Below are positions 14,478 through 59,701 of a DNA stretch of 64,000 nucleotides, in pieces. Location of the stretch: contig CM000431.1 in assembly GCA_000165345.1 (NCBI GenBank), positions 128,001 to 192,000 on the forward strand, written 5' to 3'. The position numbers and the translations under genes are program-made. A model generated the notes under the pieces. It was not told where the DNA came from, did no database searches, and worked only from the letters and a program-made list of their open reading frames with translations. How positions within the stretch are numbered: the stretch's first letter is position 1; every line of letters begins with the position of its first letter.

Positions 14478-16082
14478 TTAGGTTTGGACGCCAGTAATCA
14501 ATTCATAGGTAGTTACTATTGATGATAATATTGGTCCAATTGCCGAAATGTAACAAGACAATACTACACAGAAATTTGTGAAAAAGGATTTTCTTCTTCC
14601 CCATATAATAGAATAAACAAACAAGGGATAAATCGACGCAGTAAAAGCGTCAATATAACCACAAAACAATTCAACATATTGAGTACAAGATTTTGCCACA
14701 TGAGAAAGGAATATGGAGACAAGTAAAATAGCTGTAGAAAGTAAAAACCTCCAAATATTGAACTTTTCTTTATTTTTCATGGACTTAAGGGTTGCTTCAG
14801 CACTAAAATCTTCTTGACCATCTGATTCAATAGCTCTTGCTTTATTTTTAGCTAATAGACTTACTAATTCATCCAATACAATATTAGGATTGGATGGGAC
14901 ATAAGTTAATTTAAGGGCTCTGGATTCCTTTTTATCATCATCATCATTACCATCAAAAATTACTTGGAAAACGTCTTCTACTGCTAATTCTGACATGTAA
15001 TTGATAAGTCCAATATCATTTACGATAAAATTACAAATTGAAACGGTAAATAATGGAATAATAACACATAATGAAATACAACTCAGTATTCTTGAGAATC
15101 CCATGAATATATCACAAGGCGAAAAGTTTAATGTAATGTTATCTTGTGTAGCTTCACCAAAAGTTGTATATGCAGAAATAGTTAGAGCCAAAGAGAAAAC
15201 CAATAAAAATGTAAAGGATGCTGAAATAACCTTAATACATCTCTTATAAGTACAAGTACTAACATTTAAAACGGCTGGGACTACCATACAATGACATAAA
15301 AAGGCATAAGTTGCGAATGTGAACATCTTAAAAGCTGATAGTGGTCCATGAGCTGGCCAAATATGTACTTCTCCTGTAACAGGAGGCATAGGTCCTGAAT
15401 AAGGGAAAACAACAGATCTAACTACAATAACAGTAGCCAAAGTGAAGAATGATGCAACTGAAAACCAGCCAAGAAAATCCAATTCTGAAACTTTAGATTT
15501 CGTTGCAAAAGGTAATACCAATAAAAAGTATAATGCAGACAAAAAGTATTCATCCTTCAAATACTCCAAAAATTTAGCTTGAGGGAAGGAAAATACAGCA
15601 TGAGTAACCAGATCCTGAGTAAATGAACGCAATAGAATGAAGTATACTGGAACAGCATAAGCCATTGAAAGGAAACAAATAATGGAGATAGACTTAAAAT
15701 GAAACTTCATATTTCCTTTCATTTCCTCAACTTCACTGGCTGTCAGAATCATCTTCTGACCCTTCTGTAACTTCTCTACATCTTCTTTGTTCTCCTTCTT
15801 TGCGTCTCTTCTAGCTAAGAAACTACGAATACTCTTATATGCAGAAACTCTCATTAAAAGAGTGGATAAATCCACTGCTCCAAGTTGTAATGACCCTACA
15901 ACATAAATCGAATGGGTAACTATTGAAACAATGGCACAAATGATCAAAGTTGAAATTCCGACAGCCAAACCTGCCATCTTCATACCATATGTCAGAAATA
16001 CAACACCAGAGCCTATGCAACCGGCTGTCATGGTAGCGAAGGCCTTACTCGAATACTTGAAACTATCGTTTGCAGCCTCCAT
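14478..16082 (-). CDS. Multi-pass membrane transporter, probably of the amino-acid transporter (Aa_trans/AAAP-like) family.
   Basis: 534 aa with about 11 hydrophobic helices. The N-terminal ATMTAGCIGSGVVFLTYGMKMAGL resembles the Aa_trans signature (IGSGIL.LP). Family assignment is tentative. Confidence 0.5.
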   Translation of the reverse strand: MEAANDSFKYSSKAFATMTAGCIGSGVVFLTYGMKMAGLAVGISTLIICAIVSIVTHSIYVVGSLQLGAVDLSTLLMRVSAYKSIRSFLARRDAKKENKEDVEKLQKGQKMILTASEVEEMKGNMKFHFKSISIICFLSMAYAVPVYFILLRSFTQDLVTHAVFSFPQAKFLEYLKDEYFLSALYFLLVLPFATKSKVSELDFLGWFSVASFFTLATVIVVRSVVFPYSGPMPPVTGEVHIWPAHGPLSAFKMFTFATYAFLCHCMVVPAVLNVSTCTYKRCIKVISASFTFLLVFSLALTISAYTTFGEATQDNITLNFSPCDIFMGFSRILSCISLCVIIPLFTVSICNFIVNDIGLINYMSELAVEDVFQVIFDGNDDDDKKESRALKLTYVPSNPNIVLDELVSLLAKNKARAIESDGQEDFSAEATLKSMKNKEKFNIWRFLLSTAILLVSIFLSHVAKSCTQYVELFCGYIDAFTASIYPLFVYSIIWGRRKSFFTNFCVVLSCYISAIGPILSSIVTTYELITGVQT

Positions 16083-16712
16083 CTTTCCTTCAAAAATAAA
16101 ATCTATCTTTTACTTTATTTACTTTAAGAACTTCTCCCGACACTTGTACTTAAAACTAGAATTGTTCGGAATTTTTCTTAATGCTTTTTATTTAATTACA
16201 CTAAATTGCTGATAATAAGCCTTTCAACTTATATGAAAGACACAATATAGTAATTATTTGTTTATTCAATTCAGATTCTTCTGTTTATTAATTATTTTCT
16301 TTAACAGCTATTTCTTCTTTCTGCTCCTGTCCTTTAGCCCAATGCAGAAATAGGTCCCTAAAAATATTGCCGCCAGATCCCGCGCGCCTCCCGCCGAAAG
16401 GTAAATGTCAAAAATTAACGACATGGTAAAAAAAAGGATTAAAAAGATATTAAGAAAAACAATGTAGTAGTAAGAATTTTACTAATATGGATTTAACTGG
16501 AAAGATTTTTAGTTGAGTGAATGATTATTTCTTTGATTTTTTGCTATGACATTTTGTTTTATTTTTTTAATTCTTATCAATATTAATTATGTGTGTAAAT
16601 AAATGATCTTTTGAGGAAAATGTGTATGTGAGAAATTTATTGGAAAAAAAAAGCTGTTTAAAAAGAATCCCTAGATTAGAAAGATTTTTAGTTTTTTTGT
16701 TTAAATCTTGTA

Positions 16713-17813
16713 ATGAGAAATATAAGGTTCTTTCCCCTATTGGGAATATTTGTTTTGGGTCTAATAATAATATGTTTTGGAGTCTCAGAGTGCTACCAGG
16801 AAGAAAAAAGCTTGGAGGGTTCCCAGGTATTTCAAGAAGATCCTCAATTTAAACTAGAACAGTCTGGCTCTTATAAAGAAGACCCAGAGAGGATGAGAAA
16901 CTTGGATGAGTTTATTAAGTATTTGGTGAATGATGTTCTTTTTCCTTTAGAAGGAATTGTAAAAGGGTATTGCTTGTTTAGATCTGTATCAGATGAGGCA
17001 AAGGAGGACTTAGGACTTTATAACAAAGAGAGCATTGCTGTTGCTACCATTTTGTTAAGTGGCAAATGGAAGAATCCAATAAATTTTATATTACGTTGTA
17101 GAGAAAGCCTTCGTGTAGTAAGTAATGGGATGAAAGTTTCTTCATTTGAACATTCAAGTGAGTCCTGGTCCTCCATTACGAGTGCCCGTAGGAAGATGAA
17201 AGCTTCTCGAATAAAAATTTGTTTCAAGGCCAGAATATGCTCAAGAATGATGAAGAAAGAGGAGGGAACTGATAATCTTAGAAGGTTCTTGATTAACAGA
17301 ACTCAGTATGGATTAATTTATCCTGATCAAGGCTCAGAAATGGCTGTATGGAATACAGTAAGAGAATTTAAAGATATATTATCAGCAGGTATTCTCAAGG
17401 GTAGCATTAAGAATCATATCAGAGTGATTATTATGTTCAATTACATGAACAAAATCCTAAGCCAGATCGGAAAACAACCTGTTACTTTGTTTGTTTGTAT
17501 TGCTCTTATTAATTCCATGGTCAGAGAAAGATCCCTATCTGAATGGCTTTCATTTTCAAGGAGTAAAACTTCCTCCAGAAACAGATTAAATGAGCTTGGA
17601 ATCGATCCAGTAACAAACCTAAGATACGATACCAGATTGAATATCAAGGAGAATATAATTAACTTTCAAATAAGAACATGTAATCACGTAATCTGGACAT
17701 CTGAAGTCCTTTTAAGTGAAAGACAAGTTCAAGTTATTGGGGTGAATTCAAATCAAATATATACATTGAGGAAGAGAATTACGTGGATGTGTAATAAGAT
17801 GTTTACAATGTAG
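16713..17813 (+). CDS. Secreted protein of unknown function (N-terminal signal peptide).
   Basis: 366-aa ORF. The N-terminal FFPLLGIFVLGLIIICFGVSECY is a signal-peptide-like segment. It has its own upstream promoter region with a GC-rich element (cccgcgcgcctcccgccg at about 16379-16396). No recognisable domain. Confidence 0.5.
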   Translation: MRNIRFFPLLGIFVLGLIIICFGVSECYQEEKSLEGSQVFQEDPQFKLEQSGSYKEDPERMRNLDEFIKYLVNDVLFPLEGIVKGYCLFRSVSDEAKEDLGLYNKESIAVATILLSGKWKNPINFILRCRESLRVVSNGMKVSSFEHSSESWSSITSARRKMKASRIKICFKARICSRMMKKEEGTDNLRRFLINRTQYGLIYPDQGSEMAVWNTVREFKDILSAGILKGSIKNHIRVIIMFNYMNKILSQIGKQPVTLFVCIALINSMVRERSLSEWLSFSRSKTSSRNRLNELGIDPVTNLRYDTRLNIKENIINFQIRTCNHVIWTSEVLLSERQVQVIGVNSNQIYTLRKRITWMCNKMFTM

Positions 17814-18026
17814 AACTACTCATTTTAACTAATTTAGTCATTTTATAAATCTTATTCCAATAACTTATTTTTCTATTTTTGTTTTTTTTCTTTCCTTTTT
17901 TACCTTCAATTTAATCTTAAAATTAAAATGCATTTCCTGGCACCAGTCTGAGAATACCAGTAATGTTGGCGCCTAAATGTTGCTTTTAAACTGAAAACAT
18001 GAAAAAAATATGAAATTGGAATAAGA

Positions 18027-18812
18027 ATGAAAGGAGTTTTATGTTTAGTTCTTATTCAGCTGTGGCTTATAATAGGTAGGTTTGTTATATTTTATAGAGC
18101 TGACTTATTTGAAGAATTTCTGAGAGAATTACAATGGATCTAAAAATTGTAGTCTTTACAGTTAATTAAAATATGGTTAAATGGTCGGCTAAAATTCAAT
18201 AAATATTTAAATACGCTTCTTTTTTTTAGGAAAACTCTCAGTTTCTGCAAATAAGGTCTTAAACAACTACGAATATTGGGAAGATAAAATCGGTTCTATT
18301 TCCATAGATAGCCAAGCAAGTAATATTAGTACAGGAGTTAAGAAGAATTCCGCATCATACATAGGAGAAAACATTAAACCCTCAAACTTAGAAGTGCAAG
18401 GAAACCAAAGAATTTTGTCTGCTAGTATTAGTACTAGGCCAAAGAACAATCTTAAAACTTTAGATTTTAAGGATAATGAAATAAATGAAAAAACTCTGAT
18501 TGGAGCCACTAATAGTCCTAAAAACTGTGAATGCAAGGTTACAGTAAGTTATAAAAAAATAAATGAGTTATACTAGGCTCACAAGATGCTTTATTAAATT
18601 ATTCACAAATATATTACTAATTTCTACTTTTTTTCCATTAGAATGACTCTTGCTGGTCAAGGTCAGCATGTATTGGAATTGCAAGTACAATTTCCGTCTC
18701 TAGCCTTTTTATATTCATCGCTTTAATGTGGCTTGTTCAAGTTCTCTCAACTCATGCTGCAAAAGAAGAACATATCATGTTGAAAAATAAACTCAAAAAA
18801 CAGAAAACATAA
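18027..18812 (+). CDS. Small, previously unannotated type-I membrane protein of about 177 aa. Three exons: 18027..18075, 18230..18543, 18642..18812.
   Basis: Exon 1 ATGAAAGGAGTTTTATGTTTAGTTCTTATTCAGCTGTGGCTTATAATAG (MKGVLCLVLIQLWLIIG, a signal peptide) ends at a GTAGGT donor. Intron 1 ends TTTTTTTTAG, and exon 2 is in phase (2+312 nt), matching track ORF 18394..18576. A GTAAGT donor follows at 18544 and an acceptor CCATTAG| at 18641. Exon 3 encodes NDSCWSRSACIGIASTISVSSLFIFIALMWLVQVL.. (a TM helix) and stops at TAA 18810-18812. Confidence 0.5.
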
Positions 18813-19042
18813 AAATGTTAGTTAAGGACAAAATATAATTGGGAAAAATAAGCCATTTATTTGAATGGAAAAAAATATAATGAATTGAATGAATCAAAGC
18901 CTCAATTGTGCTTAGTAGTATAATGTATTAATTTTAGAGAATAAAAAAAAATTTGTAGAATCAGTGTATTAATATTGAATCTTAATCTTAAATCTCAAAC
19001 CTGAATTTACACTTGTCCGGACATCTAACAAAATGCATTCTC

Positions 19043-19071
19043 TTGGCGCCAATTTGAGAAGATGTGGCGCC
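19043..19071. promoter_or_regulatory. Two E2F-like sites (TTGGCGCCAA at 19043-19052 and TGGCGCC at 19065-19071) about 100 bp upstream of the first SLC35C-like gene.
   Basis: tcttggcgccaatttgagaagatgtggcgccctg. Confidence 0.5.
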
Positions 19072-19171
19072 CTGATCTAAAACGATTTTTAGATCTATAA
19101 GGAGATAAAGATAAGACAGGAGAGAATTAGAAATAAAAAGCAAAAAAAAGAATTTAAACAGCAAAGTAAAA

Positions 19172-20470
19172 ATGGGTCACTCAAAGAATAAAAAGAGTAA
19201 CTCTTCGTCTGGCTCAGAAGCTGGAAAGGAATCTGAAAGGTTTATTTCATTCCTCCCAAATAGCGTTGCAACAGTATTGGCCATTTGCTCGTTTATAGCA
19301 GCTTCAATATCTTCAGTTTATTTCAACAATGGTGTTTTTAAGAAGCAAATCAAGTTTCCTGTCTTTGTTTCATGTGCACAACAGCTTGTTGGTATGATTA
19401 TAATGAGCATATTTGGATTAATAAGAATGGCAATCTCAAAATCCTCTGAAAGTGGTAATGGAAAAGATGGAGCTGAGGTACAAGCTAACGGTTCATCAGT
19501 AAGCAGCTGGAAGAAGGTGATGTACGCTATTCCAGTCGCATTCTTTTTCTCTTTCAATATATCATTTAACAATATCTGTTTAACTCATGGTAAAGTTTCA
19601 ACTTATGCTATGGCTAAGTCTACCACACTGATGTGGTCTTTATGCCTCCAATTTTTAATCTTGGGAATTAAAGTTAAGTTGACCTCACTCATTTCTTGTG
19701 CAATCATTATTTCTGGTGTTCTCATTGGAGCATTTGATCCAAAATCACTTGTTTTGGTTTCTTTAATTTATGGTTGTATCTCATCATTCTCTCAGAGCTG
19801 CTACAATATCACTCTCAAGTGGGTTCTCCCTAAGATTGGTAACGATTCTGCAGGTCTTCTTAAATATGTTCAAATGTGGTCAATTCTCTTCTTTTTCATT
19901 CCTATGTTTGGAACTGGAGAAGTTATCCCAGCATTTACAACATCTGGTTGCTTTGATTTCAATGATCTTAATAGAATGATTTATCTATGGGGTCTAATCA
20001 CCACATCAGCTCTTCTTGCCATTGGTGTTAACCAGAGTACTTATGTTGTCATTGGTTTAACCACTCCAGCAACATTCAATGTTTGTGGTTTGGTCAAGCA
20101 AGCCTTACAAACTATCGGTGGAATCTTCTATCTAGGAGAATCTCTACCAACTCAAACAATCATTGCAGTTTGTCTCACATTCTGTGGTTCTGCTTCATAT
20201 ACTGCATTCAATCACTTTGGATCAAAACCATCTATGTCACCTTCTGAATTGAAAGTTGTTGAGGAAAAATACAAGGAAGTTGCAAGACAATCTGTCGGTA
20301 CTGCTTCTGATGTATTTGAAAATGCCCAAGATGACATCCTAAAGAGAAGTGGAAGCAAGACTAAGAACATGATTACACCATTCACCTCAAAAAATCCAGA
20401 AGCCATTCCTCTTAAGGATGATATTGAGGAAGGTCTCCCAACTGGAAACAATAACGAAAACAGAAACTAA
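19172..20470 (+). CDS. Nucleotide-sugar transporter, SLC35C/GDP-fucose-transporter-like (TPT/DMT superfamily). Paralog 1 of 3 in tandem.
   Basis: 432-aa, about 10-TM protein. FNNICLTHGKVSTYAMAKSTTLMWSLCLQFLILGIKVKLTSLISCAIIISGVLIGAFD and TPATFNVCGLVKQALQTIGGIFYLGE...CGSASYT line up by eye with the human SLC35C1 blocks [38 protein letters not shown]...GGFWLGVD and SPLTHNVSGTAKACAQT...GGSSAYT. Confidence 0.8.
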   Translation: MGHSKNKKSNSSSGSEAGKESERFISFLPNSVATVLAICSFIAASISSVYFNNGVFKKQIKFPVFVSCAQQLVGMIIMSIFGLIRMAISKSSESGNGKDGAEVQANGSSVSSWKKVMYAIPVAFFFSFNISFNNICLTHGKVSTYAMAKSTTLMWSLCLQFLILGIKVKLTSLISCAIIISGVLIGAFDPKSLVLVSLIYGCISSFSQSCYNITLKWVLPKIGNDSAGLLKYVQMWSILFFFIPMFGTGEVIPAFTTSGCFDFNDLNRMIYLWGLITTSALLAIGVNQSTYVVIGLTTPATFNVCGLVKQALQTIGGIFYLGESLPTQTIIAVCLTFCGSASYTAFNHFGSKPSMSPSELKVVEEKYKEVARQSVGTASDVFENAQDDILKRSGSKTKNMITPFTSKNPEAIPLKDDIEEGLPTGNNNENRN

Positions 20471-20957
20471 TTATAGTTCGTTAAATTCTACATTTGTTTA
20501 AATTTCATTCCCCGATGCCTATTCCCCTGTTTTTCTCCATCTAAAACCAATGTTTCTAAACTAATCAATTGCAGAAATATAAACTGTTTGTGGAATTCCT
20601 GTGCCATGTTGCATTCTTTAACAAATTACTTGTTGATGAATTTCCACTCTTATATGTATTAATAATGAAGTAGCCTTATATTACTTCCACCCCACTTTCC
20701 CACACTATTATTTTAAAATGTGCCGCTTTTACCGCCCTCGGTACCTTTGCCCGCTAAAAAGATCTTTGTGAATTTTTCATGTGGAATATCCAAAAATTAA
20801 AAGGCGCCTTTGAGTGATGATACTCAAACAATTAGTGGAACTTGTGATAATTTCATATGAAATTTGTCGAGAGAATAAGAATTTAAACCGCTAGGGAAAA
20901 GAATATATTATTATCAAAACTCTCAGATTATTTTACCATTAACCTTGAACTTTAAAA

Positions 20958-22142
20958 ATGAGTAAAGATTCAGAAAGACCAGAAATCTCTTTTATGGGCT
21001 TGCCAAGGCTGGCGAGTGCTAGTATTGCCATTGCAGTTTATGTTGTATGCTCAATTGGTTGTGTATACGCAAATAAATGGCTTCTAAGTAATGTAGGAGC
21101 TTGCCATGGTTTTATTCCCTTAGTACAACAACTTATTGGAGCCATTTTTGTGAGAACTATGGTGTATATCACAGGAATCTGTGGTATTGGCTCAGATAAT
21201 CAAAATCCTAGCTCTGATAAAACTAGTCAAAACGAAAAACAAAATGAATCACTCGTGAGCAGGCTCTGGAACAGATATAAGTACATCTGGCCAGCATCCT
21301 TTTGCTTCTCCTCCACAATTGTTTTGAACAATGCTTGTTTATCTATGGCAAAGCTTTCAACATATTCTGTTGCAAAATCCACAACTTTAATCTGGAACGT
21401 TCTCTTCCAATTCATTCTCCTCAGAATCAAGCTCCCAGTTAGTACAATCTTGTCCTGCTTCCTTATTCTTGCTGGTGTGACTATAGGTTCCTTGGATACC
21501 AGTACTTTGGCCCCTATGGCAGTTATTGCAGGCTGTTCATCCTCGATTTTCCAGGCTCTTTATAATACATGTATTGCCAGGGCTCTCCCTAAGACAAATA
21601 ATGATACCTCAGAGGTTTTGGTTAGGAATCAAGAGCTCTCCTCTGTGTTTCTTGTTATATATATTCTTGCCTCTAAAGAGCTTGTCAATTTATTCATGCA
21701 CTCACCATGCTTTGATTTATCCTCATCTAAGTTCTTAAGCTGCTGGGCTATATTCTTCCTCACCACTGCATTCGCAGCAGGTCTCAACAAGTTCACATTC
21801 ATGGTTATTGGACTTACTGAGCCTTCGACATTCTCAGTCATTGGGTTCACTAAAGCAGGTTTACAAACCGCCGGTGGATGGTTCATTTACAAGGATCCAG
21901 CATCTATCAAATCTGTTACTTCTGTAGTTTTCACACTTTCTGGATCTTTGATATATGGTATTACCAGGGGATCTAAGAAATCAGAATCAAAAAAGGAACA
22001 GGTAGAGGAAATCAGAAGACTGACTAGATGCTCCGCAGCGTCAGTTGGTGATATCGATGCAGTTCCCTCCCCCAGGGACGAAGAAGCTAAGAAGTCTGCC
22101 TCAAACGATGAAAAACAAAAACTTATCACAAGCAAAGTCTAA
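20958..22142 (+). CDS. Nucleotide-sugar transporter, SLC35C-like. Paralog 2 of 3.
   Basis: 394 aa. The same conserved blocks are present in diverged form (NNACLSMAKLSTYSVAKSTTLIWNVLFQFILLRIKLPVSTILSC; EPSTFSVIGFTKAGLQTAGGWFIYKD...SGSLIYG). Confidence 0.75.
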   Translation: MSKDSERPEISFMGLPRLASASIAIAVYVVCSIGCVYANKWLLSNVGACHGFIPLVQQLIGAIFVRTMVYITGICGIGSDNQNPSSDKTSQNEKQNESLVSRLWNRYKYIWPASFCFSSTIVLNNACLSMAKLSTYSVAKSTTLIWNVLFQFILLRIKLPVSTILSCFLILAGVTIGSLDTSTLAPMAVIAGCSSSIFQALYNTCIARALPKTNNDTSEVLVRNQELSSVFLVIYILASKELVNLFMHSPCFDLSSSKFLSCWAIFFLTTAFAAGLNKFTFMVIGLTEPSTFSVIGFTKAGLQTAGGWFIYKDPASIKSVTSVVFTLSGSLIYGITRGSKKSESKKEQVEEIRRLTRCSAASVGDIDAVPSPRDEEAKKSASNDEKQKLITSKV

Positions 22143-22948: not shown

Positions 22949-24118
22949 ATGGCAGGTGATTTCGGAAACAAGTCAAATTCCCAAGAGGAAGTAAGATACT
23001 GCTTTGGCTTACCAAATGCAGTTGCTGCTCCTATTGCCATGTGCGCATTCATTGTCTCATCTATTGGTTGCGTATACTACAACAAGAAGTGCTACCAAAA
23101 GGATCTTCCATTCCCAGTCTTCATGTCTTGGGCTCAACAACTCATTGGTATGGCTATCATGTCAACTTTCTTAACTATTAGAGGTATTCTCAGTGGAAAC
23201 GAAGAAATGTCCGCAAGTATCCCATTGAGCAAGAGACTTTACAGATATAAGTATGCAGTTTTCGTAGCTTTCTGCTTCTGTATGAACATTTCTTTGAACA
23301 ATATGTGTCTCAAGGATGCCAAGGTTTCTATGTATGCTGTCGCAAAGTCAACAACTGTATGCTACTCACTCCTCTTACAATACTTCTTATTGGGTATCAG
23401 AGCTAAGCTCTCATCTGTTTTGTCTTGCTTCGTTATTATTGGTGGTGTTATCGTTGGTATCTCAGATAAGGAATTCGGTCTTGAGCCACGTTCATTCTTC
23501 ATGGGCACTTTATCATCATTCTTCCAATCTCTCTACTCTGTTGCAGTCAAATACACTGTCCCACACTGTGACAACTCCACTACTGAACTCTTACTCCACG
23601 TACAAGAGCTCTCATGTATCATTCTTTTGGTCCTCTCTGTTGCCTGGGGTGAAACTTCAAAGGTCTTATCATCTAATGTATTTGCTTTCGTCTCTGCTCC
23701 ACTCAGTGCCCTCTGGTTATGGGTTTTGATGGCTGGTTCCGCTATCCTCGCTATCTGCTTAAACCAATGCACATACTTGGTCGTCTCCCTTACTACCCCA
23801 GCTACATACAACGTTACTGGTTTAGTTAAACAAGCCCTCCAAACTGCCGGTGGTTTCATCTTCTGGGGTGACAAGCTCAAGCCAGCTCCAGTTGGCGGTG
23901 CATGCCTCACACTCACTGGTTCAGCCATCTACACACTCACCAAGCTCTGGGATAACACTCCAAAGAACACCAAACAAGAAGAAACCATCAAGGAACAAGC
24001 TCGTCTCTCAGTTGGTACTGGTTCTGATGCCTTTGAAAACCCACTAACCGAGAATGGAAACCAAAACGAGAAGCAACCTCTCATCCCAGAGGACAAATGC
24101 GAGAAGGGTCAGGCTTAA
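22949..24118 (+). CDS. Nucleotide-sugar transporter, SLC35C-like. Paralog 3 of 3.
   Basis: 389 aa. NNMCLKDAKVSMYAVAKSTTVCYSLLLQYFLLGIRAKLSSVLSC and TPATYNVTGLVKQALQTAGGFIFWGD...TGSAIYT. This is the paralog most similar to paralog 1. Confidence 0.8.
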   Translation: MAGDFGNKSNSQEEVRYCFGLPNAVAAPIAMCAFIVSSIGCVYYNKKCYQKDLPFPVFMSWAQQLIGMAIMSTFLTIRGILSGNEEMSASIPLSKRLYRYKYAVFVAFCFCMNISLNNMCLKDAKVSMYAVAKSTTVCYSLLLQYFLLGIRAKLSSVLSCFVIIGGVIVGISDKEFGLEPRSFFMGTLSSFFQSLYSVAVKYTVPHCDNSTTELLLHVQELSCIILLVLSVAWGETSKVLSSNVFAFVSAPLSALWLWVLMAGSAILAICLNQCTYLVVSLTTPATYNVTGLVKQALQTAGGFIFWGDKLKPAPVGGACLTLTGSAIYTLTKLWDNTPKNTKQEETIKEQARLSVGTGSDAFENPLTENGNQNEKQPLIPEDKCEKGQA

Positions 24119-53851: not shown

Positions 53852-54377
53852 TAGAGGTTTAGTAATCTTTTGCTAAGGGAGAATGAAAGAAAGAAAGAGG
53901 AGGGAAAATAGAGGTACAAAATTGAGACATGGTGGAATTGAATTGATTTTGTTCTGTATTTTGTACTATGGATGACCAATTTGGTCCAAATAGGTGAATA
54001 CTCTAACTGGCGCGCATTTCCTGCTATTTGCATATATGCATGCATGTATGGACTTGTAAGTACATATTTTCTCTTATCCTTATAATACTTGCTAGTATGG
54101 TTATGTATTATTTATTTTTAAGGTTATATATTTATATTTAATTTTAATTTTGGTTTTATATGTTTTTTTTCCTATTTGCATCATAAATATATGTGAAAAA
54201 GGAGTGCTAATAATATCGTTAGTAGTAGGTAGTAGATAAGGGAGAGGGGGGAGAAATCGGTTTTGACAATTTCATAAGAAAAAAAAAAAAGAAAATCAGG
54301 CCATGCATTAAATACTTGACTTTATTCAGTCAGTAAAGCCTATTGTATGTTCTAGTTTGGTATTTTTTCAAAAAGAG

Positions 54378-54450
54378 CTCCGACGCCGGGAATCGAACCC
54401 GGGTCGCATGGGTGAGAGCCATGTATCCTAGCCGACTAGACTACGTCGGA
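54378..54450 (-). tRNA. tRNA-Glu(CUC): tRNA-Glu (anticodon CUC).
   Basis: Reverse complement: TCCGACGTAGTCTAGTCGGCTAGGATACATGGCTCTCACCCATGCGACCCGGGTTCGATTCCCGGCGTCGGAG. It has a 7-bp acceptor stem, an anticodon stem CATGG/CCATG with loop CTCTCAC (anticodon CTC), and T-arm CCGGG-TTCGATT-CCCGG. It closely resembles the eukaryotic tRNA-Glu-CTC consensus. A T5 run follows the 3' end on the minus strand (Pol III terminator). Confidence 0.9.
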
Positions 54451-56389: not shown

Positions 56390-57660
56390 GATTCCTACTA
56401 CTTTATTACCACTACTTTTACTACCACTAATATTACTGTTACTACTACTACTACTANTACTAATANTANTATTATTATTATTATTGGTAATACTANTTTC
56501 AANACTATTACCAATGATAATTCAACAAATAGCNTCAGCTGTTTATAGTATTAATATTANTTCAAANCTTTTAATTCCATTNNCANCCATTTTNATCCAT
56601 TNCATTCTCTCTATTCCCCTCTCAANAAGTGGATTTATGTAATAACTTTAATAAGTTCGTTATATATCGAAANATAAATGTGTATAATCNTTGTACTATT
56701 GTTCGAGCATATTAGCAAGAATTATATTAAACTGGAAGAGAAATAGTAGAAGAAGAAAGTANGNATAGAGAATGAGTTAGAATTTGATAGTATGTCCAAG
56801 ATTTAGTTTATATTTCTATATTATACAANTAAAATCTATGAATTTTACTAGTTATTTTTTCTANGNTTATAGTTATTTTAAAGTTAAAATAAAATCTTTT
56901 ACTTGAAAATTTTAACATATCTCATATATTCTATTTGTTTTATNCACNAGATTTACTTTCTNATGTTATATTACTANTCAATTTTTGAAAATGCGAATAT
57001 TNTATTNGATACATGCGATTTGCATGCATCCACATAAATTCNCGNNATACCGTTTAAAGAAATATGGTAATTACGTGTCAATTTTTCTNTTTGAATAATN
57101 TTAATGGTATTTTTAATAGTATTANTATAANTAGTAGAAATTGTATTAAAAATTAGAAATGTTAGTGTGAATAAAGATATTAATANATTATTATTAGTAG
57201 AAATAAGTGGAAAACAAATAGTACTAAAATTGTAATTATTCNGATTAAAATAGTTTTTTTTTTTANTTTTTTAAATAAATAAAAAAACTTAAGTTAAATA
57301 TTAGATTTAATAATTAAATAAATGGGGTGGATACATATAATTTTANTNTTTCTAATCAATAATTTAATGATTAAGNACATGNAAATAAGTGTAGGTTATT
57401 TATTGATTANATTAAATTNTTTNGATAGTTNTTATNTTCANTTCCTNNNNNNANGNNTCTTTAGTAATTGATTTCCAGAAGAGATTTCCTGAAGTTGGAG
57501 TGTTNCGAAAATCTTGATAATTATGGACTCATAGTNCTNTNNTNNNNANTANTATNATTANNATTATCGNCAATATNNTCANGATTNNCCNNCTGTTNNN
57601 GCTCGNATNACNGTNGGTANAACTATTGNCTTNANNTNCATNTNNNANNNGTATATTTAC
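56390..57660. repeat. Low-complexity TAC/ATT microsatellite region containing many N characters (unresolved or low-quality assembly stretch).
   Basis: (tac)n/(att)n runs such as ctactactactantactaatantantattattattatt. Scattered N positions run from about 56457 to 57660, and dense N runs at 57447-57460 and 57540-57650. Confidence 0.7.
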
Positions 57661-59701
57661 AGTATTAGCAGTATCCTCAACTCCAAGTGAACTAACAGCT
57701 AAAGTTGTGGAAAGTCTTAAAATTTCATTTGGATTATTAGAAGCAGTTTCCAATTTAATATATGCAAATAATGAGATATTACTTTGTACTAGATCAATAT
57801 CAATAATAATTTGATTTTTATTTAAAGGAAATAATTCAATTGGAATTTTAAATTTTGAAATAGTACCTACAAAATCATTACTTTTCTTTTTATTTACTAT
57901 TTTATTTTCTCCAATTAATCCTTCTTGATTATTGAAATATTTTTTTATGTTAGTTTGTATAGTTGTAGTTTTTTTATTATTTACATTAATAGCTTTATTA
58001 ATTCCATCTAAAGTAGCTTCCATAAATAATGGTAATTTATTTGTATTCGTATTATGACTAATATGTGGAGCTATATCATCTAATAATTTATTTACCAAAA
58101 TAATTTCGTCTTCATTTAATATTAGAATATATCTCTGTGTTCCATCTTCACTTGATGTTATATTATACATGATAAGATAATTATCTAAATCAAAAGAAAT
58201 TTGTTCTTGTTTTGTTGTGTTAATACTTTCAAGTTTTTGATTATTATAATGGTCATCAATTAAAATATGATGACGTTTTTTATGTGGATTTTTTGTATTG
58301 ATTCCAGTATTATTTACTGAATTTATTTTCATTTGATCTTGATTGGATTGTTCTTCTATTTCATTTTGATTATTTTTTATGATCGTAGAGTTGTTTGAAT
58401 CATTAGTAGTATTTGAAAGAATAGTATTATTAAAGTTATCAAATTGTGTAGAATTTTCTGTAATATTTGTTATAAAGTTTGATTCTTTGAAATATTCCTC
58501 AGTATTATTGTTTAAAGATAAGGCATCTTTTGTTTGATTGGTTACTTTTTCCTGTAAATCTTTGATTTGAAGAAATTCTGAATTTGTTTGAGTATTTTTG
58601 TCCAAGGGTATTCCTCCATTGATCAAATTTCCAATATTTGCAGGAATGGTCGTATTTGCGGTAAAGTTACCAGTTGAAGAGCTTGAATCTTTGATTTCAA
58701 TTTTTTCTTCTTGTTTGTCCTTATTTTCTTTTTTCTCACCCTCCTTTTCTTTCTCACCCTTTTCTTTTCTTTTCATCCTCTTTTTCGGTCTTCTTCTTTT
58801 CTTCTACCTTTTCGTCCATCTCTTTTTTATCCTTTTCTTCCTCCGTTTTCTTTTCGTACTTCTTTTCATTCTCTGCCATCTTTTTATCCTCCACCTTCTT
58901 TTCGTCCTTTTCATTCTCTGTCTTCTTTTCATCTTTCTTTTCATTCTCTGTCTTCTTTTCTTCATCCGTTTTCTTTTCTTCCTCCGTTTTCTTTTCGTCC
59001 TTTTCATTCTCTGCCATCTTTTCATCCTCCACCTTCTTTTCGTCCTTTTCATTATCTGTCTTCTTTTCTTCATCCGTTTTCTTTTCGTCCTTTTCATTCT
59101 CTGCCATCTTTTCATCCTCCACCTTCTTTTTGTACTTTTCATTCTCTGTCTTCTTTCCTTCCTCTACCTTCTTTTTTCTCTCCTTTTCTTCCTCCATTTT
59201 CTTTTCGTCCTTCTCCTTTTCGTCCTTCTTTTCATTCTCTGTCTTCTTTTCATCATCTGTCTTCTTTTCGCTCTTCTCTTTCTCCTTCCCTTGTATTGGG
59301 TTGTATATCTCACTATGTAAATCTATATTTGCAGAATTTTTGATTTCATTTCTCTGATTATTTCTCAGTGATAGTTTTGCCTTAGAAATTGAGGAAGACT
59401 CAGAAATTTGTGTAGAATTATCGTTACTAATCAATGAAAATTCTGTCTTAATATTTAAAACTACTCCCTGTTGTATATTGCTTTTCAACTTTAATATTCT
59501 TCCACTGCATGATTCTCCTATTGTATTAATTTCACAAACTTGATCATTATTTTGCTTTTGAGAATTTTCAATCTCAGCTATTTGATCTTCTGCTAAAATC
59601 TCATAATTCTCCAATCTAACGCTTTCTGATAACCAAACAAAGCTAAATATTACTAAAATAGGAAGAAATAATCTTCCAAACTTAATTATATGCATTTTCA
59701 T
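57529..59701 (-). CDS. Secreted protein with a signal peptide, KE-rich 15-aa tandem repeats and an N/T/S-rich C-terminal region. It is split by an apparent frameshift near 58754-58776, and its 3' end runs into the N-containing gap.
   Basis: Track ORFs 58754..59701(-) and 57529..58776(-) are adjacent, overlap by 23 nt in different frames and share composition (..KKTEKEDEKKRKG* / MKRKEKGEKEKEGEKKENKDK..). The N-terminal MKMHIIKFGRLFLPILVIFSFVWLSESV is a signal peptide. The shift lies in gaaaagaaaagaaaaggg. The downstream ORF ends inside the N-rich region, so the true 3' end is unknown. Confidence 0.5.
58740..59285. repeat. Coding tandem repeat with a 45-bp unit in two alternating variants (90-bp super-unit), encoding EKKVEDEKMAENEKD / EKKTDEEKKTDNEKD on the minus strand.
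   Basis: Repeated ...cgtccttttcattctctgccatcttttcatcctccaccttctttt / cgtccttttcattatctgtcttcttttcttcatccgttttctttt... The plus-strand ORFs 58598..59320, 58711..59343 and 59130..59357, and the minus ORF 58804..59142, are alternate-frame artefacts of this repeat. Confidence 0.75.

Follow-up and report, generated by a model that had tools for sequence, protein, structure and literature searches.

Does the DNA between two annotated genes on chromosome 3 of Cryptosporidium parvum hold a further, spliced gene? The question is raised by positions 18027 to 18812 of the stretch analyzed here, which comprises 64,000 nucleotides (NCBI GenBank assembly GCA_000165345.1, contig CM000431.1, positions 128,001 to 192,000 of the forward strand) and is referred to as a whole as the window. 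An earlier note, made from the letters of the DNA, had proposed an unannotated three-exon gene for a small Ser/Asn-rich type-I membrane protein at this place, where the annotation track displayed only a fragment. The three-exon gene was confirmed to be real, correct to the base and more than a product of chance, because the same 786-bp annotation exists in the strain IOWA-ATCC, the splice sites are kept in six other species, and the spliced frame is under purifying selection. The overall best explanation, to which we assign a probability of about 0.9, is a single-copy three-exon gene of C. parvum chromosome 3, located between cgd3_480 and cgd3_490, identical to the deposited gene of QOY42397.1 and encoding a predicted type-I membrane protein. 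The gene is already known as a model and is not a discovery; its absence from the old reference is an ordinary annotation gap.

The start codon, the two donors, the two acceptors and the 314-nt internal exon were each found where the earlier note had placed them, and the assembled model matched the curated public model base for base (Table 1). Joining of the exons gives a coding sequence of 49 + 314 + 171 = 534 nt, corresponding to 177 codons plus the stop codon and containing no internal stop, and stop codons are present in all three frames of both introns. The expected product of 177 aa has the same length as the deposited C. parvum protein. The lengths and GC contents of both introns fit published mean values (99 nt, 22% GC; PMC4637869 Table 1). 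The fragment displayed by the track was indeed present in the six-frame list of open reading frames (ORFs) and was identified as a mechanical ORF; the same 60-aa product is called as an ORF on Logan contigs which are unspliced and co-linear with the genome.

A look-up with the exact sequence revealed that the identical 177-aa protein is already public for C. parvum under QOY42397.1, WKS76789.1 and WRK31282.1, and as UniProt A0A7S7LHS3. The name strings attached to it are 'CPATCC_0031370' and 'cpbgf_300490', and the protein of C. parvum strain HLJ, 'CPHLJ_3g485', is a variant with two substitutions; the '3g485' numbering is used for this small gene in two recent annotations. The span of the annotated gene in the IOWA-ATCC chromosome 3 (CP044420.1) is 786 bp and this locus is 100% identical to positions 15027-21812 of the window, and therefore the annotated gene corresponds exactly to 18027-18812. 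The gene of QOY42397.1 and the window gene share the same 177 residues, the same 786-bp span and the same flanking genes without any sequence difference, and differ in their state of annotation alone, as the 2004 Iowa II set has no entry for it. Both flanking genes carry EAK accessions of the 2004 Iowa II annotation; the small gene is without one. The word 'unannotated' was thus right for the track and for the 2004 Iowa II GenBank annotation and wrong for newer ones, since the gene is annotated in C. parvum IOWA-ATCC, BGF and HLJ as well as in C. muris, C. hominis, C. meleagridis, C. ubiquitum and others. Exact copies of the 177-aa product were confined to three genome assemblies, each >1 Mb.

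Gaps of this kind were closed by later annotation work. In 2015, Isaza et al. contributed 74 new genes and raised the proportion of genes with introns more than twofold, and in their ortholog table cgd3_490 follows directly after cgd3_480 (PMC4637869). Baptista et al. (2022) revised the annotation of C. parvum, C. hominis and C. tyzzeri using RNA-seq and manual synteny-aware curation (PMC8744675), and the telomere-to-telomere annotation of BGF drew on long-read RNA data (PMC12179316). Splicing of the gene is supported by the comparative evidence described below together with annotations whose authors describe curation with RNA evidence (PMC8744675, PMC12179316).

The earlier note had suggested a search for orthologues in other Cryptosporidium species, and annotated orthologues were found across the genus. 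When proteins were searched with the 177-aa product, full-length matches from Cryptosporidium were obtained, with E values of 2e-99 to 2e-28 for six orthologues. The orthologues are CHM_3g485 / ChTU502y2012_384g0120 of C. hominis, CTYZ_00002756 of C. tyzzeri, a 'putative integral membrane protein' of C. meleagridis, cubi_00860 of C. ubiquitum, FG379_001939 of C. bovis, FG386_003132 of C. ryanae and CMU_038250 of C. muris, and their protein identity to C. parvum ranges from 94% (C. tyzzeri) down to 30% (C. muris). They agree with the window gene in having three exons, in the positions and phases of the introns, in their neighbours and in the architecture of the product, and share the invariant core C-E-C-x6-C-W-x4-C-I..A-S.I....L-F..I...W..Q......A..E, but differ in the sequence and length of a linker and in the extreme C-terminus, which is not conserved.

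The exon structures of the orthologues were determined by a brute-force search for the combinations of GT..AG which reproduced each deposited protein, and two introns were recovered in C. hominis, C. meleagridis, C. ubiquitum, C. bovis and C. muris. Exon 1 was 49 nt long in C. hominis, C. meleagridis, C. ubiquitum, the chipmunk genotype I and C. bovis, the intestinal-clade taxa examined; that of C. muris was 55 nt with the junction ATAATAG|gt unchanged. Intron 1 keeps its phase-1 position inside the predicted signal peptide, with orthologous lengths of 154, 150, 149, 147, 165 and 126 nt, and intron 2 keeps its phase-0 position between ...(V/I)T and N(D/N/E) from C. parvum to C. muris, with lengths of 98, 94, 98, 121 and 162 nt. 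The differences in intron length are not multiples of three, and the donor GT and acceptor AG align across the five closer species.

Substitution patterns point in the same direction. In the comparison with C. meleagridis, 15, 9 and 35 substitutions fell on the three codon positions, showing an excess at the third. The ratio of nonsynonymous to synonymous substitution rates (dN/dS, Nei-Gojobori) in the spliced frame was 0.16-0.37 in all pairs beyond that of C. parvum and C. hominis. Along the protein, the ratio was 0.04-0.06 for aa 24-60 and approximately 0.45-0.54 for aa 61-114 (C. parvum vs C. meleagridis, chipmunk genotype I and C. ubiquitum), and 0.07-0.31 for exon 3. As far as sequence comparison can tell, these values showed that purifying selection acts in the spliced frame.

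An observation was also made on the deposited model of the chipmunk genotype I. The 130-aa model ELE39_000448 (L005:2001-2900) runs past the donor of intron 2 into the intron. At the locus itself the GTAAGT donor is intact, and a CTAG acceptor is present together with the whole of exon 3, including the Cys pair, the membrane helix and the tail; a product of 181 aa results from these. Judging from this locus, the public model of the chipmunk genotype I is truncated.

Table 1. Coordinates of the small gene and of other features in the window
Feature	Position	Strand	Description
Exon 1	18027-18075	+	49 nt; ATG at 18027; hydrophobic core of predicted signal peptide; phase-1 end within codon 17
Intron 1	18076-18229	+	154 nt, 24.7% GC; donor GTAGGT at 18076; 3' end CTTC-T8-AG
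Alternative in-frame AG acceptor (candidate)	18240-18241	+	12 nt downstream of the main acceptor; use would drop four residues and give 173 aa
Exon 2	18230-18543	+	314 nt; end of predicted signal peptide, predicted cleavage VSA|N, N-terminal module, linker, CEC motif
Intron 2	18544-18641	+	98 nt, 21.4% GC; phase 0; GTAAGT donor; CCATTAG end
Exon 3	18642-18812	+	171 nt including TAA; C125/C131, transmembrane helix, A161-x2-E164, basic tail
Track fragment	18394-18576	+	Mechanical 60-aa ORF with GTG start; 3' part of exon 2 plus 33 nt of intron 2; not a gene
E2F-like TGGCGCC motif	17967-17973	+	54-60 nt upstream of the ATG; putative promoter role
Tiny upstream ORF, MLLLN and stop	17977-17994	+	Between the E2F-like site and the main ATG
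Tiny upstream ORF, MKKI and stop	17999-18013	+	Between the E2F-like site and the main ATG
Tiny upstream ORF, MKLE and stop	18010-18024	+	Between the E2F-like site and the main ATG
Upstream neighbour EAK89213.1	16713-17813		366 aa; fits cgd3_480
Downstream neighbour EAK89212.1, 'fucose translocator'	19172-20470	+	432 aa; cgd3_490; first of the tandem paralogous TPT-family transporters
Tandem TPT-family transporter	20958-22142	+	394 aa
Tandem TPT-family transporter	22949-24118	+	389 aa
TGGCGCC positions	11409, 17967, 19044, 19065, 24326, 24350, 26996, 27010, 36175, 36408, 36421		
tRNA-Glu(CTC)	54377-54450	-	Sole tRNA and sole Rfam match in the window

The layout of signal peptide, cysteines, transmembrane (TM) helix and basic tail put forward in the earlier note agreed with hydropathy and residue composition, the signal peptide being a prediction. 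Kyte-Doolittle plots with 19-residue windows detected two hydrophobic spans, residues 1-23 and approximately 129-161, the latter exceeding 1.9. The N-terminus consists of one Lys, a hydrophobic core of approximately 15 residues, and then K-L-S-V-S-A|N, and is predicted to be a typical signal peptide by the -3/-1 rule, with cleavage after A23. The second span is followed by HAAKEEHIMLKNKLKKQKT, a tail of approximately 20 residues with six K/R against two D/E. Because this basic tail follows the second hydrophobic span, a type-I topology is predicted, in which the tail would be cytosolic and approximately 107 residues would be lumenal or exterior. Cysteines are located at 116, 118, 125 and 131. 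The description 'Ser/Asn-rich' was only partly borne out, as the enrichment is mild: the protein contains 12.4% Ser and 9.0% Asn, compared with 10.8% and 6.1% in the long ORFs of the window. Mucin-like tracts were looked for, and no runs of Ser/Thr were found in the protein, whose Thr content of 5.1% compares with a local value of 5.4%. Only two N-x-S/T sequons are present (N48 and N122), neither of which is kept in all orthologues.

An alignment of the protein from nine species was used to set the section boundaries. A conserved N-terminal module, KVLNNYxxWE...Q.(A/G).N, occupies aa 24-60 and is followed by a fast-evolving variable linker of aa 61-114, whose length differs between species. 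The invariant C116-E-C118-x6-C125-W-x4-C131 motif adjoins the membrane, and the TM helix (approximately aa 131-157) leads to the invariant juxtamembrane A161-x2-E164. The highest conservation in the protein was found at aa 131-150, with block column identities of 0.91 and 0.82. The AlphaFold2 model built with the small alignment had a mean predicted local distance difference test score (pLDDT) of 51 and a predicted template modeling score of 0.20; pLDDT was below 50 for residues 40-114 and reached 77 for a block of the helix 128-176. The linker is probably disordered, and no fold search was warranted because the model was poor.

Two further proposals on the C-terminal region were rejected. A dilysine signal for retrieval to the endoplasmic reticulum (ER), KKXX or KXKXX, does not fit as the C-terminus ...KKQKT has Q at -3; the corresponding ends of the orthologues are not conserved (YKSDI, NENTK, QSNN and AKDKR). 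Anchoring by glycosylphosphatidylinositol does not fit the hydrophilic basic tail of approximately 20 residues after the hydrophobic span.

Relatives were sought beyond the annotated orthologues. In Pfam-A, searched with the protein and nine orthologues, no family was found, the best E values being 0.03-0.09, approximately 13-14 bits below the cut-offs. A profile search of PDB gave a best E value of 0.77 and no relative of solved structure. An exhaustive hidden Markov model search over 1.84 billion representatives returned six proteins at E <= 0.001, five of the Cryptosporidium type and one spurious, and no relative outside Cryptosporidium was found in it; the matches included C. ryanae, CMU_038250 of C. 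muris (E = 2e-11) and one Logan contig. The spurious match, a repetitive ENA protein (P0024), aligned only around the word 'NCEC'. Within the databases covered, these searches showed that the family is single-copy and restricted to Cryptosporidium. The match on the Logan contig (P0023, 148 aa, from a GC-richer relative) covers aa 37-119 up to CEC and then becomes rich in Pro, Ser and Arg; here the ORF caller has probably read on into intron 2, in a Cryptosporidium species not yet sequenced or annotated.

Glycophorin-like proteins are small single-pass type-I proteins whose exposed domain is disordered, which associate through the TM helix and which have a short basic tail. The protein predicted here resembles them in layout only, having a putative signal peptide, an exposed region of approximately 100 residues expected to be unstructured and a basic cytosolic tail, along with a TM segment rich in small and polar residues (G133, A135, S136, T137, S139, S141 and S142). 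In contrast, it has no sequence similarity to any such family and no dense Ser/Thr tract for O-glycosylation, its membrane-adjacent four-Cys motif has no counterpart in them, and the helical-face test described below was negative. Cryptosporidium itself has families of mucin-like and secreted antigens, such as gp40/15, gp900 and CpMuc, and SKSR, MEDLE and FLGN. The small protein shares with these the restriction to Cryptosporidium, a predicted signal peptide, the lack of characterization and an exposed region that changes relatively fast between C. parvum and C. hominis. Its gene, however, is single-copy, chromosome-internal and free of poly-Ser/Thr tracts, the TM anchor is conserved and kept genus-wide including the gastric species, and no homology to those families was detected.

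A possible course of events can be outlined from these features. The 177-aa precursor would enter the ER co-translationally through its N-terminal signal peptide, which would be cut after A23, and the C-terminal TM helix would be inserted as a type-I anchor. The four cysteines may form disulfides at the membrane surface, and the conserved TM and juxtamembrane segment might mediate self-association or docking to a partner membrane protein; both of these steps are put forward as weak suggestions. The protein could accordingly be imagined as a small structural or accessory subunit of the secretory pathway or of the parasite surface membrane, rather than an enzyme or a transporter, a role that the sequence features hint at weakly.

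Several points weigh against the reading as a spliced gene for a type-I membrane protein with such a role. Spliced cDNA-like contigs were sought and none was found, the Logan contigs across the region being unspliced and co-linear with the genome, and a literature search by gene IDs returned no paper naming this gene. The cleavage of the signal peptide is predicted from nothing but hydropathy and the -3/-1 rule, and AlphaFold2 draws residues 2-38 as one continuous helix of low confidence. The proposed interaction through the TM segment draws on conservation and nothing further; the invariant residues of the TM segment were no more concentrated on one side of the helix than expected by chance (resultant 0.35, p = 0.16), and therefore no interaction face is claimed. 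The conserved order of genes beside the sugar-nucleotide transporters is weak evidence of function, because the chromosomes of C. parvum and C. hominis have been described as completely syntenic (PMC4637869).

At the level of the gene, the mechanical ORF list contains only short ORFs here and the ORF callers on Logan contigs give only the 60-aa piece, as would be expected if there were no spliced gene and the ORFs had arisen by chance in the AT-rich spacer, or if only the 60-aa ORF or a minus-strand ORF (e.g. 18267-18536) were real. This is refuted by the comparative data, and we give it a negligible probability: across nine species or genotypes the three exons are conserved in a way that preserves the frame, the conservation of splice sites and intron phases extends to C. 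muris, the spliced plus-strand frame shows the third-position bias and a dN/dS well below 1, the three-exon model is identical to that of curated annotations, and the 60-aa ORF ends in intron sequence which is not conserved as protein. A smaller modification of the model would be that the main mRNA uses the downstream in-frame AG of intron 1, giving a 173-aa protein that lacks four residues of the signal-peptide c-region. A C. hominis UdeA01 'unnamed protein product' (P0002, 173 aa) is indeed without exactly these four residues, and also carries I15V and R169K when compared with the 177-aa C. hominis models; like the chipmunk genotype I model, it is regarded as an imperfect public model. However, the T8 tract directly precedes the first AG (18228-18229), which is conserved in all species compared and used by every other annotation, whereas the downstream AG is present in C. 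parvum and C. hominis only and absent in C. meleagridis (CTCGG), the chipmunk genotype I, C. ubiquitum and C. bovis. We regard its use in the main mRNA as very unlikely; it could serve as a minor alternative acceptor.

At the level of the protein, the continuous helix drawn by AlphaFold2 would also suit an uncleaved N-terminal signal anchor. The protein would then cross the membrane twice as a hairpin, with its N- and C-terminus cytosolic and 107 residues forming a lumenal loop, instead of adopting the type-I topology. The hydropathy over residues 1-23, reaching 2.18, is as high as that of the C-terminal TM segment. Yet the hydrophobic core of approximately 15 residues (G3-G17) is short for a membrane span, K18 and the small-x-small VSA after the core fit the -3/-1 rule, and the segment evolves as a signal peptide does, keeping its composition with poor conservation of sequence in C. 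bovis and C. muris, in contrast to the highly conserved C-terminal TM segment. The hairpin is thus considered improbable. A surface or secretory-organelle antigen, whose exposed linker is under diversifying or relaxed selection and which might be a determinant of host interaction or host range between C. parvum and C. hominis, is a tentative alternative that we regard as unlikely without dismissing it. The C. parvum and C. hominis proteins are only 92% identical, compared with 97.0% and 99.3% for the products of the neighbouring genes. Of their 14 differences, 10 fall within aa 64-109, and eight of these 10 within aa 64-87. For aa 61-114, nine nonsynonymous and one synonymous changes were counted between the two species (dN/dS approximately 2.5), and many of the positively selected genes of C. 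parvum encode uncharacterised proteins with signal peptides (PMC8744675). The 9:1 count, however, was not significant (Fisher p = 0.46), and the ratio of approximately 0.5 for the linker in more distant pairs indicates relaxed rather than positive selection; the most conserved part is the TM segment and the tail, not the exposed part, mucin-like runs of Ser/Thr are absent, and data on localisation or expression were looked for and none were found. A bolder form, a genus-specific mini-protein at the parasite surface or host interface, whose conserved N-terminal module would, together with the four-Cys knot, contact a partner of the host or of the parasite while the rapidly changing linker adds antigenic or host-range differences, appears rather doubtful. 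If it were true, the protein would be an overlooked and tractable factor of invasion or attachment, missing from older gene lists because the 2004 annotation lacked the gene.

For the single-copy three-exon gene encoding a predicted type-I membrane protein, the value as a discovery is small, as current annotations already contain the same structure and product, for C. parvum and for no fewer than seven further Cryptosporidium species or genotypes. The practical value is that of a check, in which careful reading of the raw letters led to a curated three-exon model with every base right. The small gene is also missing, without notice, from work that relies on the gene list of 2004 for Iowa II, e.g. 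older arrays, databases for proteomics and tables of orthologues. The product is one of many uncharacterised membrane proteins restricted to Cryptosporidium. Given its genus-wide conservation, its invariant four-Cys/TM core and its fast-evolving exposed linker, tagging or knocking it out would be a reasonable, if unremarkable, choice.

The neighbourhood of the gene was compared with the orthologous loci of C. meleagridis, C. ubiquitum, C. bovis, C. hominis, the chipmunk genotype I and C. muris. The order Aa_trans (minus strand), gene of approximately 366 aa, small gene and TPT is kept in the same orientation in all seven species, and the tandem array of transporters is also found beside the orthologue of C. 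muris. The identity of the upstream neighbour to C. hominis was 97.0% here, and that of cgd3_480 in the published table is 97.3% (PMC4637869). Three tandem putative GDP-fucose transporters of 432, 394 and 389 aa have been reported as cgd3_490, cgd3_500 and cgd3_510 (PMC9713705), and these lengths agree with the ORFs of the window. The local spacing also fits a real gene at this place: if it were left out, cgd3_480 and cgd3_490 would stand 1358 nt apart, compared with a genome mean of approximately 550-590 nt. The gene lies approximately 149 kb into a chromosome of approximately 1.1 Mb and not at its end. Paralogy with the upstream neighbour cgd3_480 was ruled out (BLASTP E = 2.8). As to the naming of the locus, the published scheme of IDs is cpbgf_<chr>00<legacy number> (PMC12179316), by which 'cpbgf_300490', attached to the small protein, would be cgd3_490, yet cgd3_490 is elsewhere the 432-aa transporter (PMC9713705).

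The upstream region contains an E2F-like motif, and TTGGCGCC is kept at its position in C. hominis, C. meleagridis, the chipmunk genotype I and C. ubiquitum. Motifs of this class have been described as the most over-represented upstream of genes in C. parvum (PMC3734150). The window contains 16 copies of TGGCGCC, both strands counted, compared with 0.55 expected from shuffles. The sites are often paired and all lie outside the listed long ORFs, two of them upstream of cgd3_490. The tiny upstream ORFs listed in Table 1 may fall within the 5' untranslated region, depending on the start of transcription, and a ATGAAAAAAATATGAAATTGGAATAAGAATG stretch in their region is kept in C. hominis and C. 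meleagridis.

Elsewhere in the window, 98 scattered N, single or in runs of up to six, were found within approximately 1.2 kb at 56457-57650, and none outside it; this stretch looks like a low-quality part of a draft assembly. Together with the EAK accessions of the two flanking genes, it suggests that the window most likely belongs to the Iowa II reference of 2004. Just downstream of it, at 58598-59701, long ORFs overlap on both strands (58598-59320 and 58711-59343 on the plus strand, 58754-59701 on the minus strand), beside another on the minus strand at 57529-58776.

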